Below are positions 13,485 to 55,077 of a stretch of 64,000 nt of DNA, in pieces. Below the pieces are notes generated by a model. It did no database searches and had not been told where the DNA came from. It saw nothing but the letters and a program-made list of their open reading frames with translations. The DNA lies in assembly GCA_964491455.1 (NCBI GenBank), contig CAZBFM010000001.1:3053-67052 (forward strand), given 5' to 3'. Each line of letters starts with the position of its first letter. Position 1 is the first letter of the stretch. Source of the DNA: an uncultured Candidatus Saccharibacteria bacterium (lineage in GTDB: Bacteria > Patescibacteriota > Minisyncoccia > 2-02-FULL-40-12 > GWA2-44-9). The position numbers and the translations under genes were made by a program.

Positions 13485-16655
<3,171 letters not shown>

Positions 16656-16749
16656 TGTTGTCGGAGATCCCTTATAAAATCAAGTTCAGATGCAGTGATA
16701 TATGGTGCGATTTATTACCCGTAAGAAAACCGAAGCTGTTGTGGCTTTC

Positions 16750-16863
16750 GGTAAGGTGGCATTGCCACGAGTGCTCCACCCGTTCCCATCTCGAACACGG
16801 AAGTGAAATCTCGTAGGGCCCATGATAGTCGTTTACTCGGCGAAAGTAGGTCGCCGCCTTACC
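16750..16863 (+). rRNA. rrf: 5S ribosomal RNA
   Basis: ccacccgttcccatctcgaacacggaagtgaaat…; terminal helix ggtaagg/ccttacc. Confidence 0.85.
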
Positions 16864-16879
16864 GAAGTCCACAAACACA

Positions 16880-16907
16880 ACGACCCCGCAAGGGGTCTTT
16901 GTTGTTC
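16880..16907 (+). terminator. intrinsic terminator after 5S (gaccccgcaaggggtc + T-rich)
   Basis: hairpin plus tttgttgttc. Confidence 0.5.
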
Positions 16908-16942
16908 TGGTGCGGTGTGGTATACCGACGAGGGAGGATCCC

Positions 16943-17221
16943 ATGAGCGAGGTGGTGAAGTTTCAAAAGCCGTCACTTGAGGATGAGATTCGAACCGCGA
17001 AGGAGTTTATCGAGGGAACAAGAGGTTCGTTGCAGTATTTTATACTTCAGCGGGCATCTCTCGTGGGTATTCGCGCATCGCTCCATCGTCATAAAGAGGG
17101 TCGTTTGCTTGAATTTCTGGATGAGCATATTGCCAAGTGCGATCAGGAAGTTGATGCAATCGAAGAATCGATTCATCTGTGGGAGAGAATCTTGGAGGTT
17201 CTCGAGCATAAGTCATCATAA
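16943..17221 (+). CDS. hypothetical protein (92 aa, helical)
   Basis: GAGGGAGGA RBS then ATG at 16943; followed by strong terminator. Confidence 0.5.
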   Translation: MSEVVKFQKPSLEDEIRTAKEFIEGTRGSLQYFILQRASLVGIRASLHRHKEGRLLEFLDEHIAKCDQEVDAIEESIHLWERILEVLEHKSS

Positions 17222-38946: not shown

Positions 38947-40558
38947 AATTTGATGGTATTGGCAGGTAACCAGATACTTCCAACCGTTCCTGGGTAGCTA
39001 CAACTTTATCTAAAACGTTTAATATTATGCCTCTTTTTGCGTCGAAACTCAAGTTGCTGAGACTTTTCGATGCTTTCATCGCGAATGCCTTCATTTGTTC
39101 ATTGCTGGGCAATCCATCAAATCCCATTTGGTTTCCATTTCGCTTTGCAGTCTCCGCCTGTGTCTCAAGAGATGCGATCTGGGCCCTGAGCGGTACGGTG
39201 TATTCCTTTAGTTGTTCCATGGTGAACAAGCCAGCCCCGTATGCCTTGCTGTAGCGCTCCTCCTGGATCTTTAACTTTTCGATTTCCTTTTGGATAACCT
39301 CTAAGTCACCAATTGATGATTTTGATTTGCCTTGTTGTGCGCGTATCCAGCGTTTAACCTGGGCCAACATTAACTCGGGAGAACTCATCAGGCTGGAGAC
39401 TTTCTTCCATACTAAATCATCAGCGATCCTGGCGTTTACCCCTTTTTCTTGGCATCGAGGTGGAAGGGGGAAGCTATAGATCCTATCACTGCACCGATAG
39501 TAGAGATGTTTTCCGTGTTGAGGCCCCTCTCCATGCCTTTTGATCCCACATGTGCAGTAAATTCTGCCACCCAGGAGATACTCATTCTTTTTATTTCGAT
39601 CACAGAGCGCGAAGTTGCTATCAAGTTGTTTACGGGCCCGTGCAAATAATTCTGGCTCAATGATTGCAGGGACGGGAATGTTGGATGCGATCCATTCTTC
39701 TTCTGGTTTTTGTTTGCGACTGCTCTTCTTCATCTTGCGGTACTTCTCTGTGTTGGTCGGATTTTCTGGAATAACAGCATACGAGCTACCCCAATGGGCC
39801 TGTCCAATATAGGCCTTGTTCCTGAGTAGAGTGCTCAGCGTAGAAGTACTCCAGACGCCACGCTTACTCTTTCGGGGACGGATGTCGAGTTCTTGTAGCC
39901 TCCTCACAACCTTTCTTATTGTGAAAGCTTCGTCGGCAATCCATTCAAAGATCATTTTGATGACGCGAGCTTCTGCTGGGTTGATTTCATAATACCCATG
40001 AGTTTTTACTCCATTCGCTTCTCGTTGGTTGGGCACGTATGTGTAGCCATAGAGGGCTTCGCTCACGAGAATATGCCCATCTCGTACTTTCCTAAGTTTT
40101 CCTAAGCGGAAGCGCTCAGAGATTTTTGCTCGTTCATATTCAGCAAACAGACCACGTACTCCGTGAAGGATTTTATCTTCAGGATTTTTGGGAGCAGTAA
40201 CCGTGACGAAAATTACCTCAATTCCTCCCTCCTTTAACTCATCCATTACCAACTCCTGATATGAGTATCGGCGGGCAAGGCGATCTGGGTCATAAATCAG
40301 GACGGCTTCCCAGAGTTTCGCTTTGGCATCCTGACGCAGTTGATCCAGGGCGGGTCGCGCAAGCACATCTCCACTCCAGCCGTCATCGGTATATTCACGG
40401 ACAATAGTATAGCCGTTCTTGGTAGCGAACTCACGCAGAGTGTTGAGTTGGATTTGGATGGTCTGCTCCTCTTCCTGTCGCGATGTCGATACTCGCGCGT
40501 AGATTGATATGAGTTTTGTCATGTTGTTTGGCATCTTCTTGGCGGAGTACTTCTTCAA
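38879..40558 (-). CDS. large serine recombinase (resolvase catalytic domain, recombinase domain, zinc ribbon, coiled coil)
   Basis: …ISIYARVSTSRQ… catalytic Ser; CTCGIKRHG…YYRC zinc ribbon; 3' end overlaps ychF start by 67 nt. Confidence 0.9.
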   Translation of the reverse strand: MKKYSAKKMPNNMTKLISIYARVSTSRQEEEQTIQIQLNTLREFATKNGYTIVREYTDDGWSGDVLARPALDQLRQDAKAKLWEAVLIYDPDRLARRYSYQELVMDELKEGGIEVIFVTVTAPKNPEDKILHGVRGLFAEYERAKISERFRLGKLRKVRDGHILVSEALYGYTYVPNQREANGVKTHGYYEINPAEARVIKMIFEWIADEAFTIRKVVRRLQELDIRPRKSKRGVWSTSTLSTLLRNKAYIGQAHWGSSYAVIPENPTNTEKYRKMKKSSRKQKPEEEWIASNIPVPAIIEPELFARARKQLDSNFALCDRNKKNEYLLGGRIYCTCGIKRHGEGPQHGKHLYYRCSDRIYSFPLPPRCQEKGVNARIADDLVWKKVSSLMSSPELMLAQVKRWIRAQQGKSKSSIGDLEVIQKEIEKLKIQEERYSKAYGAGLFTMEQLKEYTVPLRAQIASLETQAETAKRNGNQMGFDGLPSNEQMKAFAMKASKSLSNLSFDAKRGIILNVLDKVVATQERLEVSGYLPIPSNYVEYKTSDRYRRPSQCGQIHTL

Positions 40559-40723
40559 AGAGGAGATCGAATGCCCTATCTACTGCATCCGAAGGGGCAC
40601 TTATCGGCTCATAGCACAAAGAGGGACAACGAAGTGATGCTTTGTTGCTACACAAAAGCGTTCGTTGCCCCTCTTCAAGTTCGAGGTTATCGGCATCATA
40701 TTCACTTTTGTGTAGCAAGTCCA

Positions 40724-41335
40724 TTATACTCTTTTTCGCTTATTAAGTCGCGAGAACATCCCATAACTCAGGGTTGCGCGCCGATAAAGCGTCTCTAATT
40801 TCCTCTGCTTTTTTGTTGGTCGGCCAGCATAGTAGGGGCGTTTGATCTGTTGGCTCAGTTTTTCGATCTTGTCTTCGATGCGGATTGCGTCGAAAAGGGG
40901 AGCGTATGAGAAGTTGCGGTTTTCATTTCGCGAGTTGTAGGTCAGGTTGTAACAATGGCGACAGGCAAAATAGTCACCGTCTTTGTACAAGACTCCCACT
41001 CGTCGGCCGCAGTACACGCCACCTTTGTACCAAGGGCATTGGAACCAATATCGCTTCCCTCCATAACGGCACGGAGTTGTAACGAGAGGGATCTGGTAGT
41101 CAAACTCCTTTTTCTCGCCATCCGAGTCGGTTTGTGTGTAGTGGAAGCGTGCATGGCTTTGTCCTTGCATGGTTGCAACAACGATGCCTATGCTGCTTTT
41201 ATCACCCCATGCGCTTGTCCACTCGATCGTTCCAGATCTCCAGCCACAAAAATACTGGTGCCTCCTGAGAAAGCTCACCGATACTTTTTTTAGGCCATCT
41301 GCCTCTGTTTTTCCTCCATAACTCCATCGTCCCAT
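40724..41335 (-). CDS. hypothetical Cys-rich protein (putative zinc finger), island-borne
   Basis: 203 aa; multiple CxxC pairs (CRYGGKRYWFQCPW…CRHCYN). Confidence 0.45.
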   Translation of the reverse strand: MGRWSYGGKTEADGLKKVSVSFLRRHQYFCGWRSGTIEWTSAWGDKSSIGIVVATMQGQSHARFHYTQTDSDGEKKEFDYQIPLVTTPCRYGGKRYWFQCPWYKGGVYCGRRVGVLYKDGDYFACRHCYNLTYNSRNENRNFSYAPLFDAIRIEDKIEKLSQQIKRPYYAGRPTKKQRKLETLYRRATLSYGMFSRLNKRKRV

Positions 41336-41467
41336 GGTGGTATCTGTTATTTACCGAAATCATTTGAGATTGCGGGGGTCGTTTTTCACTAAACGATTGT
41401 ATTTCCTTGATTTTTACAATGAGTTTTCGGACATTTCCGACAACCATAATGTTAACTTTTGTTAACC

Positions 41468-43672
41468 TCAGAAGGGCAGTTCGGTGCCCTGATCTTGCCC
41501 TGTTTCCTCGTCATCCTGTTGGGTCACGTTAGTAGTTACCCCACCCTGCGTATCACTATATTCAGTGCCATCCGAAAGCTGCTTTGGGGAGGATGGGTAA
41601 ATCAACATCTTGCGTTTATCCGACGGGTCCTGCTCCTGGATAATGAGGCCCGCCGTTTCCAGCATTGGCAGGATTTGTTGGCGAAGTTGGTTGGAGTTCA
41701 GTATTCGGCCATACACTGTTAAATGCTTATCCAGCACCTCTTGTCGCGTAAGACCAGCTTTGCTCGCCAGGAGCGTGTAATCGGTGCCCTGGCCCGCGTT
41801 TTTGGCGTTCCAGAGGGGTACGATGACCTCGGTATAGAGGTTATAGATATAGGGTGGCAGGTTGAGTTCTTGGCTAACTGCGATTTTCTCCCAGAGTTTA
41901 AATGCGGCATCGATGTCAGCATCGTTGGCGGTGATCGTTGAGCCGCTACGCTCTCGCCACCACACATTGAGAAGTGCGAACGATTTGACGATCGACAGGA
42001 GGCGCTTGATGTCTCGCTGGTGGCGTGGCTTGAGTGTCTTGTTGTCGCGCAAATACTTCTCTTGGATGCGGTCTTTGGATGCGATGTTGATGTCTTTGAT
42101 CTTCTCCAGCTTGATAGCGTGGATGCGCTTTTTTAGGAGCATGCGATCGGGATTTTCCTCGAGCCAACTCACGAAGTCTTTGCTATTAGCTTCTTTACTG
42201 ATGATCGCACTGATGCTTTGCTGGATTTTCTCTTGATTGACTTCGGGCGAGAGAAGCAGAAAGCGGGTCGCCTCTTGTTCATCAATTTTCAGGCCTGCAG
42301 TGCAGAAAATAACGGAGGGGAAGCCACGCAAAAGAATATTCTTCGTTTTGAGACCAGCTTTCTGGGACTTATCAGTAATCTTGAGGGTGATCTCCTTTTT
42401 GTCGTGCGAAAGGAGGGGGCGAAGACGGGCCAAGAGTTCGTTGTGGGGCATGTCCAAGAAGATGAGGATCTTGTTGGATAGATCGACGAGGTACTGGTTC
42501 TTTTCTTTATCGTACTGCCCCGCATCGTGGAAGAAGGCGGTGGGGCTACAGTAAGCGATTTCCATGACATCATCCTGCGGGAAGAGACGAGCGATTTCAG
42601 TGGGAATATAACTCTTACCCGTTGAGCTTGGTGCGTTATAACTAATATTAAATTGGCTGTTTTCGGTGTACGCCGAGAGCTCACAAAGGAATGTGGCGAG
42701 CTTGTTTTCGGCATCGTATTTGATGGTCAGCCCCAGTGTCTCGATGAGTTGATCGGCAGTAAGCGGTTGGAACTGAGAGGTATCAATCCGTTCTGGGTAA
42801 GGCTTAGCATATTTGTCGAACAGGTCTTCGCCAATACCATTGAGGCTTGTGAAGTAATCGGTGATGTCGCCATGCTCTCCGACTTCCGTTGGCAGCGTGA
42901 TGAGGTGCGTTTCACGTCCACCATTGTCCACCATTTCGGCGACTCGTGACGCCCCTTTTCGGCCCGCTTCGTCATTATCGAAGCAAACGTAAATAGCTTT
43001 GATTGTTTGATTTTTAATCAGTTTTTCAACCCATTCATCTTTGAAGGTTCCAGCGCCGTGGGTTGAAGTAATGGCGGGGATACCATGAGTCACCAAAAGC
43101 AGACGATCCAGTTCTCCTTCGCAGATTACCAGGCGATCGTGAGCTTCTTCGAGTGTAGTCCAGTCATATAGCTGAGCCTGAGCACCCTTGGGATAGGTGA
43201 TCTTGTCATCGCCCATGACTGGATCTTGGCGCAGTTTGAAAAACGAGTAATTGCCAAAGGCATCCTTGATAGGGATAGTAATCCAGGATTTGCGGTAATA
43301 ATGACCATAACCGATCTTATATGTATCGATGATGGCATCAGAAAGACCGCGCTTGTGAAGGTACTCGCGAATGTGTGGAGGAAGAGCTCGGTGGCAATTT
43401 TCTACAGTTTCGGCATTGAAGACTTGTATCTTGCGCGGGCGCGTTAAGGTGTCTCCAAAATGCTTGGCCAGAGTGACCAGATTACCGCGTTCACCGCATT
43501 TCTTGCAGTCGTATTGGCCTGTTTCAGCATTGAAATACAGGTGGGCCTCGTTGCGTCGGCTGTCTTCATCGCATCCATTGAATACACAGTGAGTGATGAG
43601 CTCATTGCCGTGCTCGCGAAATTCAATGCCTTTCTGTGTCAGATAATCACGGATAGTAATAGTATGTGTCAT
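41468..43672 (-). CDS. DNA primase (CHC2 zinc finger plus TOPRIM) fused to P-loop NTPase (D5/SF3-like), mobile-element replication protein
   Basis: N-terminal HCxFxxC…CxxCG zinc finger; TOPRIM ICEGELD…CFDNDEAG; Walker A APSSTGKS; C-terminal wHTH. Confidence 0.75.
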   Translation of the reverse strand: MTHTITIRDYLTQKGIEFREHGNELITHCVFNGCDEDSRRNEAHLYFNAETGQYDCKKCGERGNLVTLAKHFGDTLTRPRKIQVFNAETVENCHRALPPHIREYLHKRGLSDAIIDTYKIGYGHYYRKSWITIPIKDAFGNYSFFKLRQDPVMGDDKITYPKGAQAQLYDWTTLEEAHDRLVICEGELDRLLLVTHGIPAITSTHGAGTFKDEWVEKLIKNQTIKAIYVCFDNDEAGRKGASRVAEMVDNGGRETHLITLPTEVGEHGDITDYFTSLNGIGEDLFDKYAKPYPERIDTSQFQPLTADQLIETLGLTIKYDAENKLATFLCELSAYTENSQFNISYNAPSSTGKSYIPTEIARLFPQDDVMEIAYCSPTAFFHDAGQYDKEKNQYLVDLSNKILIFLDMPHNELLARLRPLLSHDKKEITLKITDKSQKAGLKTKNILLRGFPSVIFCTAGLKIDEQEATRFLLLSPEVNQEKIQQSISAIISKEANSKDFVSWLEENPDRMLLKKRIHAIKLEKIKDINIASKDRIQEKYLRDNKTLKPRHQRDIKRLLSIVKSFALLNVWWRERSGSTITANDADIDAAFKLWEKIAVSQELNLPPYIYNLYTEVIVPLWNAKNAGQGTDYTLLASKAGLTRQEVLDKHLTVYGRILNSNQLRQQILPMLETAGLIIQEQDPSDKRKMLIYPSSPKQLSDGTEYSDTQGGVTTNVTQQDDEETGQDQGTELPF

Positions 43673-43684
43673 GTTGGGTAATAG

Positions 43685-43972
43685 TTATTCTGAGTACAGC
43701 TGATTTTTGAGAGCCTTAATGGTGTCGAAGAAGGCCCGTGCCTTTACGGTAAGTTGATCCAGGAAGTATTGATTTGCACGATCTTCAATTCCATCCTGTC
43801 TTTTGAAGATAAACAGGGCCTTTCGGGGGTCGTCTTTGTTCAGCGATAGTAGTTCGAAGCCACTGCACGCGAGGGCAGCGCTAACGCCGAGGTCATAGGT
43901 CGTGAAGACCAGTGATGGGTCATCTAACGGTATATACTGATATTCCTTGGGCCGACTTTTATTTTTGGGCAT
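43685..43972 (-). CDS. hypothetical small protein (island-borne)
   Basis: 95 aa ORF directly upstream of primase on same strand. Confidence 0.4.
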   Translation of the reverse strand: MPKNKSRPKEYQYIPLDDPSLVFTTYDLGVSAALACSGFELLSLNKDDPRKALFIFKRQDGIEDRANQYFLDQLTVKARAFFDTIKALKNQLYSE

Positions 43973-44119
43973 TGTAATGGGGTGATATTTTAATTGATGA
44001 GAGATCGACCATGACCCTCGCTATATGTGCTGAAAGGTCAGCGCAAGAAAAAACCTTGTCGTAAAACAAGGCTTTTCTCGGCTTGATTGGCCAAATAAAC
44101 CTCCTGATTTTTCAGGAGG

Positions 44120-46405
44120 CTATTCCTCTGAGTCGTCTATGGCGAGCTGATTCTCGTTGAGCCTACCTCCCTGTCGCCAAATGTCATTTTGTCGCAAACC
44201 TGGTACTGGTAATAATTTGAATTTAGGATCGTAATAATCGCTTCTTGCGTGGAACGGATCATCGTCCGTTTTGAAGATAGAGCGCATGCTTTTTACAAGT
44301 AATCGTTTAATCTGGTATACATTTCCCAATTTTAGGGAGATGTTTGATCTTGCAGCAACCATACGCGTCATTTGCTGCGCTGTAGCGGTGTGAATATCGG
44401 TTGCGGCGAGCGCAGATAGTGCCTCTAGGAAATTCCATTCACGAGTTGGTTTTTGCTGTTTTTTACCCCTGGAGAACCCTAGCTGTACGTAATCTGGGGC
44501 GGCGATGTATTTCCCGTCGTAATAGATCTCAATCTCTTTGGCTCCTTCTTTAAATTTAATTTCAACTTTCTCGAATTTAACTACCTCGGGGAAGACGAGG
44601 TCAATTGAGTGTCGCTTTTTTACCGCGCGCCTGATGCCGAATATTTCTGGCGGAGATGCTATGGGTATGAGCGCGTTGCCAGGTACAATGTAGTAGTCTT
44701 GCGACTCTGGTTTGGTCGTTTTCTGAGCACGCGCTTCCGCTTTATCTTGAGGTTTCCGCGGTTGGCGTTTGAGTAAGTATGGTGAGAGATTTCCCTTAAT
44801 CTCATCTCGTTGGATGTGTACATCAGTTCTTCGTTGGTGCAGATAATATCCAATGAGGTTCATTTCTGGTGACGTTGCATTGAGTGCATTTTCGATATGG
44901 CCCTGGATGACAGGACTCCTCAAGCCATCAAATGTGTTGAGCAAGAAGAAAGAGTAAAGGGACTTTTCTACTCCACTGCTCGCTTCTTTCATTGATCGCT
45001 TAACGAGCTCAATGTCTATGTCCTGTTCTCGAATGGCTTTATGGTATAGGGCAACAACCTTGAAGATTGTTGTTTCCTTCTCACTCAGGATACGGTCGAT
45101 TTCCTGGTCTAGCTCACCAATGATGATGCTTTTGTTTGACGCTAGCAGTTTGAGTATCCAGAATTTCGACCAGTCGGTGACCTCACTGTTATTGTACGCT
45201 TCCCAAAGTGCGCTATCGATGGTTATGGCATCGAGTGGGTCGCCAAAAATATCGAGCATTACCATAGAGTCGGCAATGTATTGAATGATTGGCACTGTCA
45301 GTGAGGGTCGGATCGGGATGATCTTGATAAGGTCAAGGATCAAATTAAGGTTGAAGATTACGCTGGCCTTCAGATAGTACTTAAGACCGCGAATTTCTAG
45401 CTTCTCAACCTTTTCACCGCTGATTATTGCACCGATGATTCGGGGGATTGTGGCGGTGATACGCGCAAAATCGTCCTCGGGTATTTCGGGGGTGCTGTAG
45501 TCATAATCGGAGCTGATGCGCATGGCCTCAATCGCTTCAGTATCCTGAAGCTCGGTAACTTTTGTTTTCTCGTTGAGATTTAGGTTGTGACCTCGAAGAA
45601 AGCGTACTATTTTTTCTGTCGCTTTGAGCACATCTTCTTTGCTCCTGCCCATCAGCACAAGATCGTCCACGTATCGTAGATAGCGGAAGTTTTTCCCAGC
45701 CAGTTCTTCTTCGATATATTCATCAAGAGACGCAAGATATGCATTAGCGAGAACCGCTGATGGGCCAGGGCCTTGGGGCAATCCTTTTGGTAGGTCAGGA
45801 AACTCGGTCCATGTTCTCAGTTGTGTGTCGAGTATGGATAGAATTTTTTCATCCTTAATGCCAAAGTCGTTTTTGATTTTCTCCATTAACTTTCCGATTG
45901 GGATATGCTCGTAATATTGCTGAACATCAACCTCCAACTTCCAGACCAGCCCCTTTTCAAATGCTTTCTTTTGCCCTTCGCAGAACTTATCCCAATCATT
46001 GAAATATGGGGCGATAAAGGCTGGTGTTTCTGCATTATCATGAACTCGATTACCAAAACAGCTTTTGTCGGAGAGCTGATTGTCGATTTTGTATCCAAGG
46101 ATTTCTTGGTTGAAGATGGCTTGGAATACGATTCGATCGATCATCGACATTACGTAGACGGGCCGAAGGGCTAGATTGTCTTTAGGTATGTAAACGAAGA
46201 ACCCCTTTTCGGGGGCATAATTACCGTCTCGGATCTGTTTCTCTAGGGCAACAAAGAATTCGCCACCAAGGGCATCAATGGCAGTAGTGGCAGGATGATT
46301 AATTGGGTTTACGGAAAGTGTCGAGTGTGAGAGCTCGTGTTGAACGTGTGTGTATGCCAGCTTTAGGTTTTCTCGCGATGAGAACCGCTCAAAAAGAGTC
46401 GCCAT
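44120..46405 (-). CDS. reverse transcriptase, Abi/UG (defence-associated RT)-like, with about 450-aa helical C-terminal extension
   Basis: RT motifs: …LRPVYVMSMIDRIVFQA…; GLPQGPGPSAVLANAYL; YVDD (RYVDDLVLMG); 761 aa; no intron/retron context; neighbours are R-M and nuclease genes. Confidence 0.8.
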   Translation of the reverse strand: MATLFERFSSRENLKLAYTHVQHELSHSTLSVNPINHPATTAIDALGGEFFVALEKQIRDGNYAPEKGFFVYIPKDNLALRPVYVMSMIDRIVFQAIFNQEILGYKIDNQLSDKSCFGNRVHDNAETPAFIAPYFNDWDKFCEGQKKAFEKGLVWKLEVDVQQYYEHIPIGKLMEKIKNDFGIKDEKILSILDTQLRTWTEFPDLPKGLPQGPGPSAVLANAYLASLDEYIEEELAGKNFRYLRYVDDLVLMGRSKEDVLKATEKIVRFLRGHNLNLNEKTKVTELQDTEAIEAMRISSDYDYSTPEIPEDDFARITATIPRIIGAIISGEKVEKLEIRGLKYYLKASVIFNLNLILDLIKIIPIRPSLTVPIIQYIADSMVMLDIFGDPLDAITIDSALWEAYNNSEVTDWSKFWILKLLASNKSIIIGELDQEIDRILSEKETTIFKVVALYHKAIREQDIDIELVKRSMKEASSGVEKSLYSFFLLNTFDGLRSPVIQGHIENALNATSPEMNLIGYYLHQRRTDVHIQRDEIKGNLSPYLLKRQPRKPQDKAEARAQKTTKPESQDYYIVPGNALIPIASPPEIFGIRRAVKKRHSIDLVFPEVVKFEKVEIKFKEGAKEIEIYYDGKYIAAPDYVQLGFSRGKKQQKPTREWNFLEALSALAATDIHTATAQQMTRMVAARSNISLKLGNVYQIKRLLVKSMRSIFKTDDDPFHARSDYYDPKFKLLPVPGLRQNDIWRQGGRLNENQLAIDDSEE

Positions 46406-46700
46406 AGTAATAGTAATGTTGGTGGCATCCTACTCCCCAAGAGGGCTTATATCAAGGTATCGATGAGGCTTCCAATTAACCATCAATAGTGGTAATTTAT
46501 GCTTAACAATTTATCGCCTAACCCTTGTGAGCTTGTTGTCACAAGATATGGCGAAAAAATCCCCATCCCTGATACTGAACCCCTCGTTCAGCGCACTCAG
46601 GGATGGGTCATGCCCGAAAGGGTATGTGAGTCGCAAGACTCAACGCTAGCGGGGGGCTTTGTGTTTCCCGTTTGCGACATAGGTTTTACCCATCCCTACT

Positions 46701-47588
46701 ATGTCGAAAAAACTTCATCGGTTTGCCATTGCCGACCTTTTTGCTGGCATTGGCGGTTTCCATCTTGCCTTCCATCGTCTTGGTGCGGAGTGTGTTTTTG
46801 CAAGTGAATGGGATGAACACGCTCGAAAAACATACGAGCACAACTTTAAGAAAATCAGTCCCGACCTCTTTGAGAGTGGGAACTTTGCGGGAGATATAAC
46901 AAAAGTTTCTGCCAGCGCAGTACCCGATTTCGATATTCTCACAGGTGGTTTTCCGTGTCAGCCGTTTAGCCAGGCTGGCTTCAAGAAGGGATTTCAAGAT
47001 GCACGAGGGACTTTATTTTTTGATATTGCTCGCATCATTAGAGCGAAGCGACCCGTAGCGTACTTTATTGAGAATGTTCGGCATCTCCAGAAGCATGATG
47101 ATGGTAAGACGTTCGCTGCAATAAAAAGAATTATCGAGGACGACCTCGGTTACTCTTTCCATGCAAAAATCGTGAAGGCATCAGATTTCGGTTTGCCCCA
47201 GCATCGTCCGCGTCTTTATATGGTTGGTTTCAGGGATAAGGACGTTCCGTTCAAGTTTCCTGATCCCGTGCCATTAAAGATGAGTATGTCGGATGTGTTT
47301 GGAGGAGAGTGCGCGCGGAATGTTGGTTTCACTCTTCGCCTGGGAGGGCGTGGCTCTGGGCTCAACGATAGGAGGAATTGGGATACCTACCTTGTTGATG
47401 GAAAACAAAGAAGGCTGTCGCCTTTGGAAGGCAAGAAGATGATGGGCTTTCCGAATAGTTTTCATTTTCCTGTCACTGAAACCCAGGCGATGCGTCAGTT
47501 GGGTAATAGCGTTGCTGTGAATGCAATACGGGCAACCGCTCGAGAGATTATTAGTTCGCTTAATCATTACTATGGCAAAGGGAAATAG
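46701..47588 (+). CDS. DNA (cytosine-5)-methyltransferase
   Basis: motif I DLFAGIGGF, motif IV GGFPCQPFSQAG, motif VI ENV, QLGNSV. Confidence 0.9.
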   Translation: MSKKLHRFAIADLFAGIGGFHLAFHRLGAECVFASEWDEHARKTYEHNFKKISPDLFESGNFAGDITKVSASAVPDFDILTGGFPCQPFSQAGFKKGFQDARGTLFFDIARIIRAKRPVAYFIENVRHLQKHDDGKTFAAIKRIIEDDLGYSFHAKIVKASDFGLPQHRPRLYMVGFRDKDVPFKFPDPVPLKMSMSDVFGGECARNVGFTLRLGGRGSGLNDRRNWDTYLVDGKQRRLSPLEGKKMMGFPNSFHFPVTETQAMRQLGNSVAVNAIRATAREIISSLNHYYGKGK

Positions 47589-48651
47589 GGGTGAATGGAG
47601 TGAATTCTATGCCTTCATCAAACTCCTTTCGGAGAGACAGTTGAGTGCGGCTGATGATAACCTCCAGAAAATAAAAGACATTTTTTACCCAGTCCTACGA
47701 GTTATTCGCGAAGAGGCTACTGGAGTAACGGATTACGAGTTTGCTGAAGAGGGAAAGGTGAGAGTGCTCCAGGCTGGTACTGAAATCGCCCTGGTAGATA
47801 GTTCTGACCTAAAATCAAAGGTCTTGGATATATTTCAGGCAATCCAAGATAGTAGTGAAACTACTTTTGAAGTATCAGTTGCAGATGAGTTGATGACGCG
47901 TTTTCATGCTACTCGTCTTAATGCGGGCAATGGACGGAAAGAGGACATCGTCCTAAAAATACATGATCGCATGACTGGCACAGAGCCAGATGTGGGCTTT
48001 AGTATCAAATCGATGCTTGGCAACCCTGCTACTCTTCTCAATGCGTCTAGCGCCACAAACTTTATATATAAAATTTCGGGCCTTGGTGATGACCAGATCG
48101 AACGCATAAATTCAATTGATACACACTCAAAGGTTCGCGATCGCCTCTCTGCAATTGTTGCATCAGGAGGAGCTTTTACTTTTCAGGGTATGAGTTCGGG
48201 GGTTTTCACGAAGAACCTTCGACGAATTGATGCGGTTTTGCCAGAGATTTCAGCGCAGCTACTTCTGGCATTTTATATGGGCAAGGGGAGCCTCTTGCCA
48301 GATCTGGTTGCTAACCTGGGGGATGATGAGACGAATATACTTACATTCGATTTAGATCGCTCCGACTACGAGTTTAAGGTGAAAGGCTTGCTATACAATA
48401 TAGCCCTCGGCATGGTGCCCAATACGCCCTGGGATGGCCTTACGCGGGCCCACGGAGGGTATATTATCGTGCGTGAGGATGGAGAGATCGTTGGGTATCA
48501 TCTATCGAACGCAGATACTTTCAGGGGCTACCTGTACAAGAATGCACGTTTTGACACTCCGAGCACCACGCGTCACGGTTTCGGTTTGATCTACCAGGAG
48601 AATGGGGAGTCTTTTATCAAGTTGGCGATGCAGATTCGTTTTATTCGCTGA
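47572..48651 (+). CDS. putative Type II restriction endonuclease (HpaII-family-like) partnered with the C5-methyltransferase
   Basis: overlaps methyltransferase stop by 17 nt; N-terminus MAKGNRGEWSEFYAFIKLL resembles HpaII-type REases (recalled from memory, not searched). Confidence 0.5.
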   Translation: MAKGNRGEWSEFYAFIKLLSERQLSAADDNLQKIKDIFYPVLRVIREEATGVTDYEFAEEGKVRVLQAGTEIALVDSSDLKSKVLDIFQAIQDSSETTFEVSVADELMTRFHATRLNAGNGRKEDIVLKIHDRMTGTEPDVGFSIKSMLGNPATLLNASSATNFIYKISGLGDDQIERINSIDTHSKVRDRLSAIVASGGAFTFQGMSSGVFTKNLRRIDAVLPEISAQLLLAFYMGKGSLLPDLVANLGDDETNILTFDLDRSDYEFKVKGLLYNIALGMVPNTPWDGLTRAHGGYIIVREDGEIVGYHLSNADTFRGYLYKNARFDTPSTTRHGFGLIYQENGESFIKLAMQIRFIR

Positions 48652-48720
48652 CAGAAGACCAGTCGATGAGTGTCATAAAGCCTTGTTATTGTTCGATTTT
48701 TATAATAAAATCCCTCGGTT

Positions 48721-49467
48721 ATGTTTCAGGCAAAGACCCAACGAATATCAGAGCTGGCTGCAAAGTATCCAGATCGCATTATGGAAATGGAGTCGATTTT
48801 GAGCGCGTCGGCCAATGTCTATGTAGATTATGCGAATGTTCGTCCCTGGTCTGAGCGCCTCAAGTGGCACGTTGAACCGAAGCGGCTCAAGCAATTTTTA
48901 GACTCCTTCTCAAATTTTAAGTCCATCCGCTTTTATTCTGGTGAATTAAAGGGAGATGTTGACTCCGAAGCTTCTACTCAGGAGTTAAAGCGGATTTTCA
49001 ATTCTGGTCTCGTTACCAAGCCCGTTAAGATTATGCGACTCCCAATCAATGTTTCGAGCATTCCCAAGAATGATCCTGCTATCCTAAAGGATTTTATTCG
49101 TAAGCCGCTACTACAGAAATTAACGGTTCAAACCGTCGAATTATTAAATGGAGAGTTGGAGAAACTTAACCAGCAGGGTACGGCTTTCCTTGAGGATAGG
49201 AAGTGTAACTTCGACGTTGAGATAGGGACTGACATTCTTTTGGATCTTGAAAGGGGAAGTGCTGATGTCTTTGTGCTCTGGAGTGGAGATAGTGACTTTG
49301 CGGATCCTATTAGTAAGTTGCTTGCTGCGGGGAAAAAGGTCTACCTATTTGCTACTGCTCGCAGGATTGCTAGCGAGCTTAATACCCTTACGACTAGTGG
49401 ATTGGTAATTTTTGATATTCAGAAGATAAGGGACTTTATATGCTGGGCTCGTGAAATAACCCCGTAA
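48721..49467 (+). CDS. NYN/LabA-like domain protein (putative nuclease)
   Basis: …VYVDYANV…DVEIGTD…VLWSGDSDF… Asp pattern typical of NYN/PIN-like domain. Confidence 0.6.
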   Translation: MFQAKTQRISELAAKYPDRIMEMESILSASANVYVDYANVRPWSERLKWHVEPKRLKQFLDSFSNFKSIRFYSGELKGDVDSEASTQELKRIFNSGLVTKPVKIMRLPINVSSIPKNDPAILKDFIRKPLLQKLTVQTVELLNGELEKLNQQGTAFLEDRKCNFDVEIGTDILLDLERGSADVFVLWSGDSDFADPISKLLAAGKKVYLFATARRIASELNTLTTSGLVIFDIQKIRDFICWAREITP

Positions 49468-49476
49468 AATCAAGCA

Positions 49477-49508
49477 AAAGGGGCCCCTTGCGGGGCCCCT
49501 AAGCTTTA
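49477..49508 (+). terminator. hairpin terminator (aggggccccttgcggggcccct)
   Basis: 10-bp GC stem; weak T-run. Confidence 0.45.
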
Positions 49509-49640
49509 GAGTTCGTGATTGTTTCCAATCAGGGACATGATACCATACCCTGCTCCATTTTGTCCACATGGCCTGAAAAAGTCGTGAAACCTATTATAAT
49601 GACTCTTGGGGGAGTAATTAAGAAGCTATGACAGGGATAT

Positions 49641-49669
49641 TGACTTATCAGTATAAAACTGCTATAATG
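49641..49669 (+). promoter_or_regulatory. sigma70-like promoter (TTGACT-N17-TATAAT) for DGR target gene, about 165-nt leader
   Basis: consensus hexamers. Confidence 0.5.
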
Positions 49670-49834
49670 TAGGTAGGATATAGCTCTTTTCATCCATATA
49701 ACTTGCAGGTTTTGCTACAGCAGAGAGCGCCTATTGTGGGCCCTGTCTACTGTGGCAAAACCATGAGGTAGCGCCCAACAGTGCAACCGATGTGTCCCGC
49801 AAGGGATGTGTCACCAAACAGGAGATGCGTAGCT

Positions 49835-50425
49835 ATGGCTACTCCGTCTGATGTCAGCGTGGGCCTGGCCCACGAACTCACCATCACCACCACGAAGGCG
49901 GGATGGGAACCCAAGGACTTCGCAACCCTCGCCCACAGCGAGGACAAGGCCCGCGAGATCCTCGCGTACCTGCGCGGTCTCTCCGAGATCAAGCAGGTCA
50001 CGCACGCCATCGACTGCGATGCCGACCCCTTCCTGCCCAACGGCTGGCGGGTGGAAGAGCACCGCAAGGACGGCGTGATCGTCTGGGACCTCACCAAGGT
50101 CTCCCTTTATCTCTCCAAGGGGCAGAAGGGCGACAAGCGTATCGTCGGCAACGACCTCCGCAAGGAGCTCGCCAAGAAGCCCACGATGAACGCCAACGTG
50201 CTGGACTACCTGCTCAAGAACCCCCACCTCATTCCCGAGGACTGGAAGAAGGACGACCGTGGCAACACGCGCTACATCTTCTTCTGGGGGACCATCTACC
50301 GCGGCTCCGGCGACGGCCTGTACGTCCGCTATCTGTGCTGGGACGGCGGTGCGTGGAGCTGGGACGTCGGCTGGTTGGGCCGCGTCTTCGTCGGCGACCG
50401 CCCCGCTGCGTTGCGTGCAAGTTAG
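49835..50425 (+). CDS. DGR target protein 1 (196 aa, no signal peptide, C-terminal variable region); high-GC gene
   Basis: start at ATG 49835 (AGGAG 11 nt upstream; aligns with paralog N-terminus MAAKSAFSIVGLAHKL); VR at 3' end; conserved motifs IDCDADPF, MNANVLDYLLKNPHLIPEDWK, TRYIFFWGTIY. Confidence 0.75.
   Translation: MATPSDVSVGLAHELTITTTKAGWEPKDFATLAHSEDKAREILAYLRGLSEIKQVTHAIDCDADPFLPNGWRVEEHRKDGVIVWDLTKVSLYLSKGQKGDKRIVGNDLRKELAKKPTMNANVLDYLLKNPHLIPEDWKKDDRGNTRYIFFWGTIYRGSGDGLYVRYLCWDGGAWSWDVGWLGRVFVGDRPAALRAS
50298..50420 (+). repeat. DGR variable region (VR1)
   Basis: 123-nt homolog of TR; about 23 mismatches, 22 at positions where TR has A; 3'-terminal 20 nt identical to TR. Confidence 0.75.
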
Positions 50426-50487
50426 GTCCTTGGACCTGGTTCCTTAGGCCCCGTTGGCCTCTGAACCTTAGTCCTTCGACCCCGTTC

Positions 50488-50528
50488 GATGCCCTGTGTG
50501 CGAAAGCGCATGGGGCATCTTTTTTTGT
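50488..50528 (+). terminator. hairpin (gatgccc…ggggcatc) plus T7 downstream of VR1
   Basis: inverted repeat plus T-run. Confidence 0.5.
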
Positions 50529-50762
50529 GCTAAAATTAAATTGGAATTAGGCGAATATGCGGGCGACTACGGTTTCCTGCTGCCGAACCCAGTATCCATA
50601 CAACCCAGAATATCTCCGACTACGGTTTGAGGTAGCGTGGTGTATGTAGAAACTTCAAAAAATGAAGATACTTGGTAGGGGGTGCTATAGCATTGCGATG
50701 CCGAATACGATACAGCCCTGAGAGTACTCGAAGGGCAGTGGCACGGAAGGCACTCACTACAC

Positions 50763-50885
50763 ACCGCAACTCCGACGACAACCTGTACGTCCGCTATCTG
50801 TACTGGAACGACGGTGCGTGGAACTGGAACTACAACTGGTTGGACAACGACTTCAACGGCAACAACCCCGCTGCGTTGCGTGCAA
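50763..50885 (+). repeat. DGR template region (TR), adenine-rich (many AAC codons)
   Basis: aligns to VR1 with A-specific mismatches; located upstream of RT. Confidence 0.75.
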
Positions 50886-50891
50886 CTCTCC

Positions 50892-51287
50892 TCATTTCTC
50901 TCCCTTCGCGGGAGAGTTTTGTTTTTGCAGTTGGCCGTTCCATCCACCCATCATTTTGCCGATCTCATCCATCTTTAGAGATAGCGCGGCATACTTCTGG
51001 CTGTTCAATGATTTCGTCTCCCAGAGTACCAAGAGTAGTACTTTGAGCGTGTCTGTCTTTCGTATGGCGAGCCGAACATACGGGAGTTTCTCGTTGCGTG
51101 GAAGGAAGCTGGCAGTTGCCAGAGCTTCGATCAGTTCAATAAACAGGGCATCTATTCGTAGTCCAAGTGAGTGTCGGTGTGTCTTTGGGAGTGTTTGGAG
51201 ATAGCTATACCAAAGAATATAGGCACTTTTTGTGCTTTGAAGTAGTGGTATCAGCGGGGGGGGGGTATTATAGGAAGAATGGCTCAT
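50892..51287 (-). CDS. avd: Avd-like four-helix-bundle protein (accessory variability determinant), opposite strand
   Basis: …LPKTHRHSLGLRIDALFIELIEALA…LAIRKTDTLKVLLLVLWETKSL…EIGKMMGGW resembles four-helix-bundle/Avd family; start could be at 51431 (179 aa). Confidence 0.5.
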   Translation of the reverse strand: MSHSSYNTPPPLIPLLQSTKSAYILWYSYLQTLPKTHRHSLGLRIDALFIELIEALATASFLPRNEKLPYVRLAIRKTDTLKVLLLVLWETKSLNSQKYAALSLKMDEIGKMMGGWNGQLQKQNSPAKGEK

Positions 51288-52286
51288 AAGCAGTTCAAAT
51301 ATCCATACCAGAGTATCATTTCTTTGGAAAATCTCCTCCAGGCGTGGAGGGAGTTTCTTGTTGGTAAGCGGAGCCGAAAAGACGTTCAAGATTTTGAGCG
51401 TAATTTCATGGACAATGTTATTGCGCTGCACAGCGACTTAAGAGACAAGACATACTCTCATTCGGCGTATGAAAGTTTCAACATTTCCGACCCTAAGCCA
51501 CGGCACATTCATAAGGCGACCGTGCGAGATCGGTTATTGCACCACGCACTCTACCGAAATCTCTATCCATTCTTTGCGAGAGCGTTTATTTCGGACTCCT
51601 ATTCCTGTCAGCTCAATAAGGGGACGCATCGAGCGATGGATCGTTTTCGATCGTTTGAGCGTCAGGTATCCCGCAACCACACTCGCACAGCATGGGTGCT
51701 CAAGTGTGATGTGCGAAAGTTCTTTGCTTCTATAGACCAGGCAGTTCTTTTGGGGATTTTAAAGCAGTACATTCCAGATCAAGATACTCTCTGGCTGCTC
51801 TCGCAGATCATTGGAAGCTTTTCTTCGACCAAACCTGGTTTGGGGTTACCTCTGGGAAATCTCACCTCTCAACTCCTGGTGAATATCTATATGAACGAGC
51901 TGGATCAATTCGTGAAACACTCCCTGGGGGCTAAGCACTATATCCGCTATGCTGATGATTTTGTCGTTATGTCCCACGACAGGTCTTGGCTCGAAGAGTT
52001 GTTGCCTAGAATAGCTGACTTTTTAAATGAAAGGCTGTGCCTGGAACTTCATCCCAATAAAGTTTCTATTCAAGCTCTTGCCTCGGGAGTCGATTTTCTC
52101 GGTTGGGTGCACTTCTCTGACCATAGGGTGTTGAGAACGGTAGCAAAAAGGAGGATGTTTAGAGGTCTTGGGTCGCGAGGAGGCAATTCTCAAACCGTGC
52201 AGGCGTATTTGGGACTCATAAGCCATGGAAATACCAAAAAGCTCGAGCAACGAGTGCGCCAGCTTTCTTCCGAATATAGTGAGTAG
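51279..52286 (+). CDS. DGR reverse transcriptase
   Basis: 335 aa; RT motifs incl. LPLGNLTSQLLVNIYMNELD (DGR-type (I/L)GxxxSQ) and IRYADDFVV (YADD). Confidence 0.9.
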   Translation: MAHKQFKYPYQSIISLENLLQAWREFLVGKRSRKDVQDFERNFMDNVIALHSDLRDKTYSHSAYESFNISDPKPRHIHKATVRDRLLHHALYRNLYPFFARAFISDSYSCQLNKGTHRAMDRFRSFERQVSRNHTRTAWVLKCDVRKFFASIDQAVLLGILKQYIPDQDTLWLLSQIIGSFSSTKPGLGLPLGNLTSQLLVNIYMNELDQFVKHSLGAKHYIRYADDFVVMSHDRSWLEELLPRIADFLNERLCLELHPNKVSIQALASGVDFLGWVHFSDHRVLRTVAKRRMFRGLGSRGGNSQTVQAYLGLISHGNTKKLEQRVRQLSSEYSE

Positions 52287-52571
52287 CGGGGTAGGGTGAC
52301 TATCGAATAACTCCTGGAACTGTCTGAAAGTTAGGAGGTGGGAGTTTTATGGTGAACTGGAAGGGGATCAGCTTGAGATTTTCACTGTCAGCATGTCGGG
52401 TAGTGTTCATACCATGCCAATAGAGAGTGCCATAGGGTGTCAGTGTAGCACTGGACGAGGTTCAATTCTAGACCTTGTGAAATTAAAGTATTGTGATATA
52501 ATATACTTGTTCGTTAAGAATACTCAAGCGACAAGATCCGCAAGGATAGTCGCGCAAACAAGGAGGGCCGT

Positions 52572-53165
52572 ATGGCCGCAAAATCCGCGTTTTCAATAGT
52601 GGGGTTAGCCCACAAGCTCTGTTTAGCTTTCGAAGCACAGGGCTTCACGCCTGAACTTCTGAACGCACTTGCTGAAAGTCCGCATATCTTGGCTGAGCTG
52701 CGCAATGTCCAACGTGGCTATTCGGAGATCAAACCGATTACCTACGTTATCGACTGTGACGCCAAACCATTTGTACCTGATGAGTTGGAAGTCTTCGAGC
52801 ATATGCCAGGTGGTGTAGTCGTTTGGGACCCAACGAAGATTTGCCTGTTTCTCTCAGAGCGACAGAAGTGTGGTGCACTCGTAGTCGGAAACAAGCTGCG
52901 TAAGGAGCTCGCTCGAAGTCCGACGATGAACGCCAACGTCTTGAGCTTTCTGCTCAAGAACCCGCACCTCATTCCGGAGGACTGGAAGTACGACGAGCGT
53001 GGCAACACGCGCTATATCTTTTTCTGGGGCACAATCTACCGCGACGTTAGTGGACAACTGTGCGTTCCGTATCTGTGCTGGAACAGCTCAGTGTGGGTCC
53101 AAAATTATCACCGGTTGAAATACGTATTCACTTATATTCATCCCGCTGCGATGTACGTGCACTAG
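52572..53165 (+). CDS. DGR target paralog 2 (197 aa) with diverged VR
   Basis: about 50-60% identity to target 1 across length; C-terminus retains …YLCW… and cccgctgcg but mismatches vs TR not A-specific. Confidence 0.7.
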   Translation: MAAKSAFSIVGLAHKLCLAFEAQGFTPELLNALAESPHILAELRNVQRGYSEIKPITYVIDCDAKPFVPDELEVFEHMPGGVVVWDPTKICLFLSERQKCGALVVGNKLRKELARSPTMNANVLSFLLKNPHLIPEDWKYDERGNTRYIFFWGTIYRDVSGQLCVPYLCWNSSVWVQNYHRLKYVFTYIHPAAMYVH

Positions 53166-53180
53166 CACTGCTCAGCTTTC

Positions 53181-53210
53181 AGCCGACACACATGTGTCGG
53201 CTTTTTTGTT
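53181..53210 (+). terminator. hairpin agccgacacacatgtgtcggct + T6
   Basis: same hairpin repeats after paralog 3. Confidence 0.6.
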
Positions 53211-53312
53211 GGCGGCAGTGCTTGCATTATGGAGAATTCGTTGTATAATATATTTGTTCGTTAAGAATTCGAAGGCAAGTAGACTGACGAGCGAGAATTT
53301 AAAGGAGTACGC

Positions 53313-53771
53313 ATGAGGACTATGTTGAAGCGCCAATCTGGGAGTCGGGCGCATACGCGAGCTGAACATTCAATCGACTGTGACGCAGATCCGTATGGGC
53401 CCAGTGGCTGGAGCGTGAGGGCGCATCGTAGACGGGGCATTGTGCTCTGGGACTGCGGTAAGGTGGCACTGTTTCACTCTGATCGGCAAATGGGTGACGC
53501 GTGTATCACCGGGTTTGAGCTCCTCAAAGAGCTCAGCACGAACCAATCGATGAATGCCAACGTACTGGACTTTCTTCTGACTCATCCGCAATACATCCCG
53601 AAGAGTTGGAAAGGAAAGTACGTGTTTTTCATGGATACGATCTACGACGATGATGAAGGCGACGGATGCGTTCGCTGTCTCGCGTTTAGCGGCATGCATT
53701 GGTTTTGGTCGCACGGTTATTTGCGCGACAAATTTAGTGCGAATAACCCCGTCGCTGTCCGTGTAGTATAA
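53313..53771 (+). CDS. DGR target paralog 3 (N-terminally shorter, 152 aa) with diverged VR
   Basis: shares IDCDADP, MNANVLDFLL, NNPVAVR-type C-terminus; own TATAAT promoter copy. Confidence 0.65.
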   Translation: MRTMLKRQSGSRAHTRAEHSIDCDADPYGPSGWSVRAHRRRGIVLWDCGKVALFHSDRQMGDACITGFELLKELSTNQSMNANVLDFLLTHPQYIPKSWKGKYVFFMDTIYDDDEGDGCVRCLAFSGMHWFWSHGYLRDKFSANNPVAVRVV

Positions 53772-53791
53772 GACTTATTTGCTTCATCGGC

Positions 53792-53820
53792 AGCCGACAC
53801 ACGTGTGTCGGCTTTTTCAT
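53792..53820 (+). terminator. hairpin agccgacacacgtgtgtcggct + T5
   Basis: near-identical to 53181-53210 element. Confidence 0.6.
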
Positions 53821-53853
53821 ACTCTAGATACGGCGGTGGTATACTAATGAGGC

Positions 53854-55077
53854 ATGTCGAGTGCTCGTGATTCAATTTTTCGATCATATGATATTCGAGG
53901 ATCCTATCCGGGTGATTTTGATACGCAGTTTGCGCAGCGTCTCGGTGCTCGTGTGACTCAGTGGCTGCCAACAGGGCCGATAATTATCGGTCGCGATGCG
54001 CGTGCAACGAGTGATGGGCTTGCCTATGCCGTCGTTGATGGAGCGCTCCATGCTGGCGCCCAGATTATTGATGTGGGTGTCGTGTCGACACCGCAATTCT
54101 ATTGGGCGATACGGTCTCGTGGCGCCACGGGCGGTATTATGATCACTGCTTCGCATAATCCTGCACAGGACAATGGATTTAAAGTTATTGCTATCCGTGG
54201 AGGCGTGTTGGAGGTGGTTGGAGGGGATGTATTGCGGCAAATAGTTGACGTGCATGAGCATGGCGCAGCTACAACAGGGACGATAGAATTCGCGTCAGTG
54301 CTGGAGGGGTATACTGCGGCTGTTGCGTATGCGGCGCGCTGGCAAGGAGGGCGCGAGCTCGTGACCTCTTGCGATGGCCCACGGGCCGTACAAGCCGTCC
54401 TGGAGCGTCTGGGCCCTATTGCTACGAGCGATACGCTGGCGGTACGATTTGACGCCGATGGTGACCGCGTCAATTTCTTTGAGTCTGGTCAGCAGATTCC
54501 ATCAGACTTTATCTTTCTTCTCCTGGCGGAATACTACGGCTACGCGCCATTGGTGTTTGATCTGCGATTTTCGAAAACGGTACGACAGCGACTTGATGCA
54601 CGTCAGGTCTCCTATGAGGTGTCTGCGGTGGGGCGTGTGCAATTGACGCAGGCCATGCATCGCCTCGGTGCGCAATTCGGGGGAGAGACGAGCGGACACT
54701 TCTATTGGAAAGAGTTTGGTGGTATGGAGTGTCCCGAGCTCACGATGTTGCGTGTGCTCGAAATTATGCGGTCCAGCAAGCAGTCGCTAACATCGCTCAC
54801 TGCTCCTTATCGACTGTATGCGAAAAGCGAGGAGCTTACGGTGCCATTGGCAGATCGAAAACATGCGGCTTCTCTCATGCGCGTATTGCAGCAAAAATAT
54901 GAGGATGCGCACATCACGCATGTTGATGGTGTCACGATTGAATATGAGGAATGGTGGTGCACAGTGCGCCCATCAAACACGGAGCCCCTCTTGCGAATTG
55001 TCGTCGAGGCTATCAATAAAAAAATCCTCGATCAAGCGATCGAGGAGGTGATGACAATTCTTCATCAGGGAAGGTGA
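53854..55077 (+). CDS. phosphoglucomutase/phosphomannomutase family protein
   Basis: …IRGSYPGDF…; active-site TASHNP. Confidence 0.85.
   Translation: MSSARDSIFRSYDIRGSYPGDFDTQFAQRLGARVTQWLPTGPIIIGRDARATSDGLAYAVVDGALHAGAQIIDVGVVSTPQFYWAIRSRGATGGIMITASHNPAQDNGFKVIAIRGGVLEVVGGDVLRQIVDVHEHGAATTGTIEFASVLEGYTAAVAYAARWQGGRELVTSCDGPRAVQAVLERLGPIATSDTLAVRFDADGDRVNFFESGQQIPSDFIFLLLAEYYGYAPLVFDLRFSKTVRQRLDARQVSYEVSAVGRVQLTQAMHRLGAQFGGETSGHFYWKEFGGMECPELTMLRVLEIMRSSKQSLTSLTAPYRLYAKSEELTVPLADRKHAASLMRVLQQKYEDAHITHVDGVTIEYEEWWCTVRPSNTEPLLRIVVEAINKKILDQAIEEVMTILHQGR

Follow-up and report, generated by a model that had tools for sequence, protein, structure and literature searches.

Which of the genes beside a diversity-generating retroelement (DGR) does the element rewrite? 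The question is raised by a 64-kb stretch (the window) of contig CAZBFM010000001.1 from an uncultured Candidatus Saccharibacteria bacterium, about 10% of the 652,729-bp contig, which contains a complete DGR (target gene T1, template repeat TR, bAvd and reverse transcriptase, RT) and, directly downstream of the RT, two further genes of the target type, P2 and P3. We conclude, with a probability of roughly 0.72, that P2 and P3 are non-diversified paralogs of the target family, each in its own transcription unit, which are not rewritten by the local DGR. The coordinates of all features are collected in Table 1.

P2 and P3 had been described as two tandem target paralogs in an earlier note made from the sequence alone, and the profile of the target family bears this out: it matches P2 with an E-value of 2e-90 and P3 with 4e-62 over profile positions 39–196 (hmmsearch), and both proteins align with T1. 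There are 586 homologs of P2, nearly all of about 190–200 aa, from Patescibacteria and without a Pfam domain; T1, P2 and P3 themselves have no match in Pfam. The top PDB matches of the P2 structural model (Foldseek) are C-type lectins and are weak (E 0.46–3, TM 0.27–0.39); no match at E <= 0.001 is found in either PDB or BFVD, and a sequence-profile search of the PDB gives nothing below E 0.1. The C-terminal consensus of the family is LxVRYLxWxGGxWxWxxxWLxxxWxxxxPAALRAS, and its variable positions are those of the AAC codons of the TR. In the comparison sample of 80 related loci (L001–L080, one per species) the usual order is target–TR–Avd–RT, with an antisense Avd and an RT where the contig extends far enough. 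A TR is found 340–480 nt downstream of 34 family genes, with 0–6 non-A mismatches per 100 nt. Two tandem genes which each match one shared TR are present in L018 and in L051; some 15% of DGRs are multi-target cassettes (Wu et al. 2018, PMC5758913). The window is similar in that several homologous target-type genes lie together; however, all copies in L018 and L051 are upstream of the TR and differ at adenines only, whereas P2 and P3 are located downstream of the RT, without a match to the TR. None of the 80 related loci has family genes downstream of the RT.

Concerning the TR, the note had claimed that the C-terminal regions of P2 and P3 (VR2 and VR3, the equivalents of the variable region VR1 of T1) are related to it and differ from it at non-A positions and in the initiation of mutagenic homing (IMH, the last 20 nt). 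The relation holds for P2, which is 56% identical to the TR over 126 nt in register, with TATCTGTGCTGG and CCCGCTGCG in common; for P3 it is weak in DNA (50% over 126 nt, with a local alignment that covers just the last 43 nt) and clear at the protein level. The differences were described correctly. Mismatches hit all four TR bases, and those at non-A positions number 38/94 in P2 and 45/94 in P3, versus one in VR1; the IMH matches the TR at 12/20 positions in P2 (17/20 with a 2-nt indel) and at 13/20 in P3. VR1 has 22 A mismatches plus one T>G and matches the TR throughout the last 20 nt (20/20); its non-A mismatches per 100 nt are 2 against its own TR and 3 against the TR of L010. The T>G difference (VR1 50366, TR 50831) is at a first codon position, the codon being TAC in the TR and GTC in VR1. 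In the scan of the 64-kb window no sequence fits as a TR for P2 or P3, and there is no fitting one among the 34 family TRs (at least 29 non-A mismatches per 100 nt for P2 and at least 32 for P3). TR-linked genes conserve 14 columns of the VR framework (median kept 14), of which 10 remain in P2 and 9 in P3, and several near-invariant framework residues are gone from P2. These comparisons show that the C-terminal regions of both genes are not templated by the present TR.

There are also traces of an older relation. NNY codons (those ending in a pyrimidine) are found opposite 17/21 TR adenine codons in P2 and 16/21 in P3, versus 51–54% elsewhere in the same genes (pooled: 33/42 versus a 52% background, combined binomial p = 4e-4), and P2 keeps CCCGCTGCG as well as CGTGCA, the latter shifted by 2 nt. 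Together with the position of both genes next to the DGR, these traces speak for the explanation put forward in the earlier note, namely that P2 and P3 were once targets of this DGR and have decayed, and that their GC-rich 3' hairpin doubles as a target-recognition hairpin; we consider this unlikely, based on the history and the 3' context of the two genes. The NNY enrichment is a weak sign that an AAC-templated VR stands far back in the ancestry of either gene. Since association with DGRs runs through the whole family, a diversified ancestor is plausible, and we infer that the deeper ancestors of P2 and P3 were DGR-diversified; even so, this does not require that either gene was ever targeted by the DGR which now adjoins it. 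After uncoupling from its DGR, the former VR framework would have evolved by ordinary point mutation. A later refreshing of the VR2 framework by the TR, relative to the rest of P2, is not supported (codon identity 10/13 in the VR and 28/41 in the mid-segment, p = 0.73).

Cyanobacteria are known to have paralogs of DGR variable proteins which are not diversified and retain remnant TR–VR homology, e.g. all3226 of Nostoc PCC 7120, and a loss of diversification after the selection of a variant has been proposed (Vallota-Eastman et al. 2020, PMC7517822). P2 and P3 are like the all3226-type paralogs (PMC7517822) in their degraded TR similarity and in being unlinked from the diversification machinery. 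They differ in being tandem and directly downstream of the RT instead of dispersed (P3 as a conserved resident, P2 as a recent mosaic insertion), in their Patescibacterium host and in a target family that has no Pfam domain. Since such paralogs have already been described (PMC7517822), P2 and P3 are an ordinary case.

Comparison across genomes shows that in this lineage P3 is the gene resident at the ychF–PMM locus and that its C-terminal domain is fixed and maintained by purifying selection. The orthologs of P3 are 84–87% identical, and in L081, L082, L083 and L089 the order is ychF(−)–P3–PMM–TrpRS and the locus is free of a DGR. Across five genomes VR3 hardly varies: 1–5 of its 42 residues differ between P3 and its orthologs, versus 19/110 residues elsewhere. 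Between the window and L081 the whole gene has a ratio of nonsynonymous to synonymous changes (dN/dS) of 0.21; in the last 42 codons (VR3) the ratio is 0.11, and the 14 nucleotide changes in these codons are mostly C/T transitions and not A-biased. In the closest relative, L088, the 3' end of a DGR RT is found directly upstream of P3, and VR3 differs by one residue. As a positive control, T1 and its relative P0142 (88% identical) differ at 6/154 residues outside the VR and at 17/42 inside it, and 16 of these 17 differences coincide with TR codons that have A as their first or second base. Set against the near-invariant VR3, VR divergence of the T1 type indicates that the DGR diversifies T1 and not P3. 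The presence of P3 with the same VR3, under purifying selection, at loci which have no DGR also counts against P3 as a decayed target.

The same data bear on whether P2, P3 or both are still active targets which are diversified by another TR outside the window. Remote DGR targets are known (PMC7517822) and the part of the contig examined is about 10%; against this stand the near-invariance of VR3 in the five genomes and its changes without A bias, the lack of a fitting TR in the window or among the 34 family TRs, and the loss of framework residues that are normally restored by a TR (10/14 and 9/14 kept versus a median of 14). The other RT of the window is DRT/UG19-like and not a DGR RT. We regard continued diversification as very improbable. 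A further explanation, that both genes are functionless, pseudogene-like remnants in decay, could draw on the absence of the N-terminal three-helix domain from P3, on its longest branch among 85 family members, on its lowest core conservation (34/47) and on the framework residues missing from P2. However, both open reading frames are intact, each with a Shine-Dalgarno sequence and with a predicted promoter and terminator; dN/dS is low for the P3 orthologs, as given above, and about 0.14 for the mid-segment of P2 versus T1, and the AlphaFold model of P2 has a pLDDT (predicted local distance difference test) of 92. Decay of this kind is improbable for either gene.

The repeated promoter-like element which the note had pointed out is present in front of both genes. 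The 24-mer ATAATATAYTTGTTCGTTAAGAAT occurs at 52498 and 53245 only (chance expectation 0 matches), within a 25-nt repeat which opens at the TATAAT box, and the box is separated by a 16-nt spacer from TTGTGA (P2) or TTGCAT (P3). The corresponding promoters of relatives are TTGATT-16-TATAAT in L081 and TTGTGA-16-TATAAT in L088; such hexamers at a spacing of 16–18 nt are of the sigma-70 type. In the leader of P2 the nested stem-loop has a GNRA loop, and it is kept in the leader of a family gene of L006 (around 8040–8070), where the loop is GTAA. Based on consensus predictions, P2 and P3 would be separate transcription units, each made up of a sigma-70-type promoter, leader, Shine-Dalgarno sequence, open reading frame and intrinsic terminator, and we infer that their promoters and terminators are functional.

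The same hairpin and T-run follow both genes, as the note had stated: the 22-mer AGCCGACACACRTGTGTCGGCT is found at 53181 and 53792 only (0 expected by chance), 15 nt after the stop codon of P2 and 20 nt after that of P3, and the next promoter comes after the hairpin and T-run of P2. The stem is AACCGGCAC/GTGCCGGCT in L081 and L083 and AGCCGACAC/GTGTCGGCT in the window, a G>A change paired with C>T, which is compensatory; hairpin and T-run are kept in relatives without a DGR at the locus. An Rfam scan of 49400–54000 gives just two chance-level matches. Judged from the consensus scan, folding and compensatory changes, the shared hairpin is most probably an intrinsic terminator. It is like other bacterial intrinsic terminators in its 9-bp GC-rich stem, its 4-nt loop, the 5–6 T at the gene end, the promoter that follows and the compensatory substitutions; its only oddity is the presence of near-identical copies after genes of saturated divergence.

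The earlier note had proposed a dual role for this hairpin. The hairpins of characterised DGR targets lie 4–34 bp away from the VR and have a GC-rich stem of 7–10 bp with a 4-nt loop of the form GRNA, and in BPP-1 the loop sequence is essential (Guo et al. 2011, PMC3240598); the resemblance of the DGR hairpin to terminator stem-loops is pointed out by the authors themselves (PMC3240598). In geometry, P2 and P3 agree with the hairpin of BPP-1 mtd: they have a GC-rich inverted repeat with a 9-bp stem and a 4-nt loop, and the distance from the stop codon (15–20 nt) is inside the reported 4–34 bp range, a point in favour of former targets. However, the loops ACAT and ACGT violate the GRNA consensus (a need known from BPP-1, not from this clade), a T-run follows immediately, the structure is conserved where there is no DGR, and the active T1 and 33 other TR-linked genes carry a different 3' element; the dual role as proposed is not supported. 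The hairpin of P3 starts 23 nt after the last sense codon, which is the modal offset of the small post-VR hairpin of the family; because of this shared offset it may be a remodelled descendant of that hairpin. The offset is the sole support found for the dual role, and it also speaks for decayed targets.

A different history is found for P2. Compared with L081, the window has two extra segments, a 13.5-kb insertion (38926–52410) and the 747-bp P2 unit. The P2 unit is flanked by the 25-nt promoter/leader sequence as a direct repeat and sits between the promoter and the leader of P3. Removal of the P2 unit from the window gives exactly the order of L088 (the 3' end of the RT, an intergenic region, the 25-mer and P3), and the single copy of the 25-mer in L088 is identical to copy B; the stretch in front of copy A is orthologous to that in front of the P3 promoter in L081 and L088 (junction alignments). 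The leader of P2 is 34/38 identical to that of the ychF-adjacent family gene of L006 and the N-terminus is also L006-like, while the C-terminal half is nearer the T1 lineage (83% nucleotide identity in the mid-segment). Between P2 and T1 the proportion of synonymous differences (pS) is 0.51 in the mid-segment versus 0.90 in the N-terminus, and codon identity is 28/41 versus 15/39. Between P2 and P3, on the other hand, 24/25 positions of the 25-mer and 26/27 of the terminator are identical, although synonymous sites are saturated (pS 0.76). The loop is GCAA in L081, ACAA in L087, ACAT in P2 and ACGT in P3 of the window; because of this series and the shared stem states, the P3 terminator would have been copied into the P2 unit in the window lineage after the split from L087/L088. 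A mismatch-tolerant search of the window and the 80 related loci finds the 25-mer and the hairpin solely at P2 and P3, and they are therefore neither genome-wide nor family-wide repeats. Judged by these alignments, P2 is a lineage-specific mosaic insertion, and its 25-mer and putative terminator are recent copies of those of P3. No close relative of P2 is found in public data, the next-best match being 57% identical.

Two other origins were considered for the P2 unit and rejected. A retro-copied mRNA does not agree with the 35 nt past the terminator and the -10 box which the inserted segment holds. Also, an integron cassette (attC-like) reading does not agree with a promoter in each unit, a palindrome of just 22 nt, the T-run after it and the absence of an integron integrase. 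The ychF-adjacent family gene of L006 (8036–8873) is itself a hybrid, with a P2-like leader and N-terminus and a T1-like C-terminus and 3' element, which points to allele shuffling among family genes at the ychF locus.

The 13.5-kb insertion splits ychF at about codon 5, and the DGR is inside it. An orthologous T1–TR–Avd–RT set is present between ychF and PMM in L010 (80% nucleotide identity), without the other island genes, and a T1 ortholog alone is found between the same two genes in L061; this makes the ychF–PMM site the place where the gene family usually resides, and gain or loss of DGR cassettes at the site appears to have happened on more than one occasion. The orthologous DGR of L010 means that the DGR may be old at the locus, which is a point in favour of P2 and P3 as its decayed targets. 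On the other side, relative to L081 the DGR lies within a recombinase-bearing insertion, and the present P2 unit was formed after the L088 split with coding parts from other alleles. What stands of the description as former or inactive targets is thus that both genes are paralogs and are not templated by the present TR; decay from targets of this particular DGR is not supported, given P3 in synteny without a DGR, the dN/dS of 0.11 in VR3, its one-residue difference from L088 with the DGR RT, the DGR within an insertion and the recent mosaic origin of P2.

The 3' context of the TR-linked targets of the family is different from that of P2 and P3, which again counts against decayed targets. The stop codon is followed by a CTTNG repeat array of about 55 nt, which is shared by nearly every family member and is specific to the 3' ends of these genes, and a terminator comes at about 50–65 nt; the commonest CTT-to-CTT spacings are 7 nt (105 cases) and 8 nt (49 cases), and the array holds a hairpin of 4–6 bp which starts 22–25 nt after the last sense codon. 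T1 differs from the BPP-1 mtd context in its CTTNG array, in a hairpin of 5 bp which starts at +23 and in a terminator placed near +65. Covariation is seen in a helix of 5 pairs that was specified by hand, with 36 cells changed on both sides versus 17.6 +/- 3.9 after shuffling (reached in 0/500 shuffles), and 72% of cells are paired versus 22–54% with the partner slid; RNAalifold gives no consensus structure for the element. The hairpin survey, which takes perfect stems, misses imperfect ones, including the terminator of T1 itself. A profile of the element (nhmmer) matches 34/34 TR-linked genes, which are its training set, and 32/51 genes without a TR in the fetched flank, which are independent of it; elsewhere in 1.2 Mb there are just 6 weak matches. 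At P2 and P3 the profile has no match, and a counterpart of the CTTNG array is absent. A distantly related gene pair in L056 (774–1574, 2190–3074) has a similar YTTG-rich 3' flank.

In our main reading the local DGR leaves P2 and P3 unchanged; their C-terminal regions depart from the TR at non-adenines, their IMH is unmatched and the 3' element found after every TR-linked family member is missing. It is possible that the CTTNG array and its hairpin are the target-site element of this DGR clade. A more specific version is that P2 and P3 are frozen former-VR alleles, fixed-specificity versions kept beside the DGR, which were uncoupled by loss of the module of CTTNG array and covarying hairpin, that this module and not a GRNA hairpin is the recognition signal of the clade, and that the P3 terminator is its remodelled remnant; we find this version doubtful.

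Several points weigh against the reading of P2 and P3 as non-diversified paralogs in their own transcription units. The TR search spans 64 kb of the 652,729-bp contig, and a second TR elsewhere is possible. P2 has no ortholog, and the ortholog-based figures for selection and VR variability therefore cover P3 and T1 only. The hairpin of P3 is at the +23 offset of the family and may have some role in target recognition. The assignments of promoters and terminators are consensus-based, the 34/34 figure for the 3' element is circular, with a profile trained on the TR-linked set, and a mechanism that copies or homogenises just the 25-mer and the hairpin amid diverged sequence is left unexplained.

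Table 1. Features of the locus, with positions in the window
Feature	Position	Strand	Description
Large serine recombinase	38879-40558	-	In the 13.5-kb insertion
761-aa UG19-like defence RT	44120-46405	-	In the 13.5-kb insertion; DRT/UG19-like, not DGR RT
T1 (DGR target)	49835-50425	+	Diversified; VR1 at ~50298-50420
T1 3' flank	50426..50519	+	CTTNG array with ~7-nt period 50426-50487; hairpin AGGCC-CCGTT-GGCCT 50446-50460; GAAA-loop terminator 50488-50519
TR	50763-50885	+	DGR component
bAvd	50892 to ~51230	-	DGR component
DGR RT	51279-52286	+	DGR component
Displaced first ychF codons, ATGGCACTCTCTATTGGC	52416..52433	-	Mark the right end of the 13.5-kb insertion
P2 promoter (predicted)	52475..52521	+	-35 TTGTGA 52475-52480; -10 TATAAT 52497-52502; copy A of the 25-nt repeat TATAATATACTTGTTCGTTAAGAAT 52497-52521
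P2 5' untranslated region	52528..52566	+	Stem-loop GCGAC..ATCC-GCAA-GGAT..GTCGC 52528-52553; Shine-Dalgarno AAGGAGG 52560-52566
P2	52572-53165	+	197 aa; DGR-target paralog
VR2 (VR-equivalent of P2)	53037..53162	+	Last 42 codons; not TR-templated
P2 intrinsic terminator (predicted)	53181..53208	+	9-bp stem, loop ACAT, T6; a recent copy of that of P3
P3 promoter (predicted)	53222..53268	+	-35 TTGCAT 53222-53227; -10 TATAAT 53244-53249; copy B of the 25-nt repeat 53244-53268
P3	53313-53771	+	152 aa; paralog, N-terminus truncated, strongly diverged
VR3 (VR-equivalent of P3)	53643..53768	+	Last 42 codons; fixed, under purifying selection
P3 intrinsic terminator (predicted)	53792..53818	+	9-bp stem, loop ACGT, T5
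PMM/PGM	53854-55077		3' of P3; TrpRS next

Concerning the neighbouring genes, the 13.5-kb insertion also encodes a Toprim primase-like protein, an HpaII methylase and endonuclease and an NYN protein. Throughout the whole DGR clade bAvd is antisense between the TR and the RT, and L078 contains a second TR-like sequence at 16556–16954. The GC content at third codon positions (GC3) of T1 is 0.89, versus 0.46–0.60 in every neighbouring gene, and the orthologs have 0.79 (L010) and 0.86 (L061). Because these orthologs are equally unusual within their own genomes, high GC3 is a stable property of the T1 gene lineage, and recent horizontal transfer was rejected as its cause. A G10 homopolymer is found at 51256–51265, 13 nt before the start codon of the DGR RT and just upstream of the antisense bAvd; a run of G7–G13 is present at the equivalent place in 27/29 related DGR loci and its length varies among genomes. 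The G tract may act as a switch for phase variation or may belong to the DGR RNA. Neither the 3' element nor the G tract has an Rfam family match within 49400–54000, and we know of no literature description of either, though no search was aimed at them.

For annotation, the lesson of this locus is that a VR-like C-terminus in a DGR-adjacent gene need not mark the gene as a target of that DGR, whether live or decayed; here it is the comparison with related genomes which tells the one live target from the two fixed paralogs, whose histories differ. If they are indeed what they appear to be, the family-wide 3' element and the G7–13 tract before the RT would be candidate cis elements for the targeting and control of DGRs in the candidate phyla radiation (CPR), and as such they would outweigh the finding on P2 and P3 itself.

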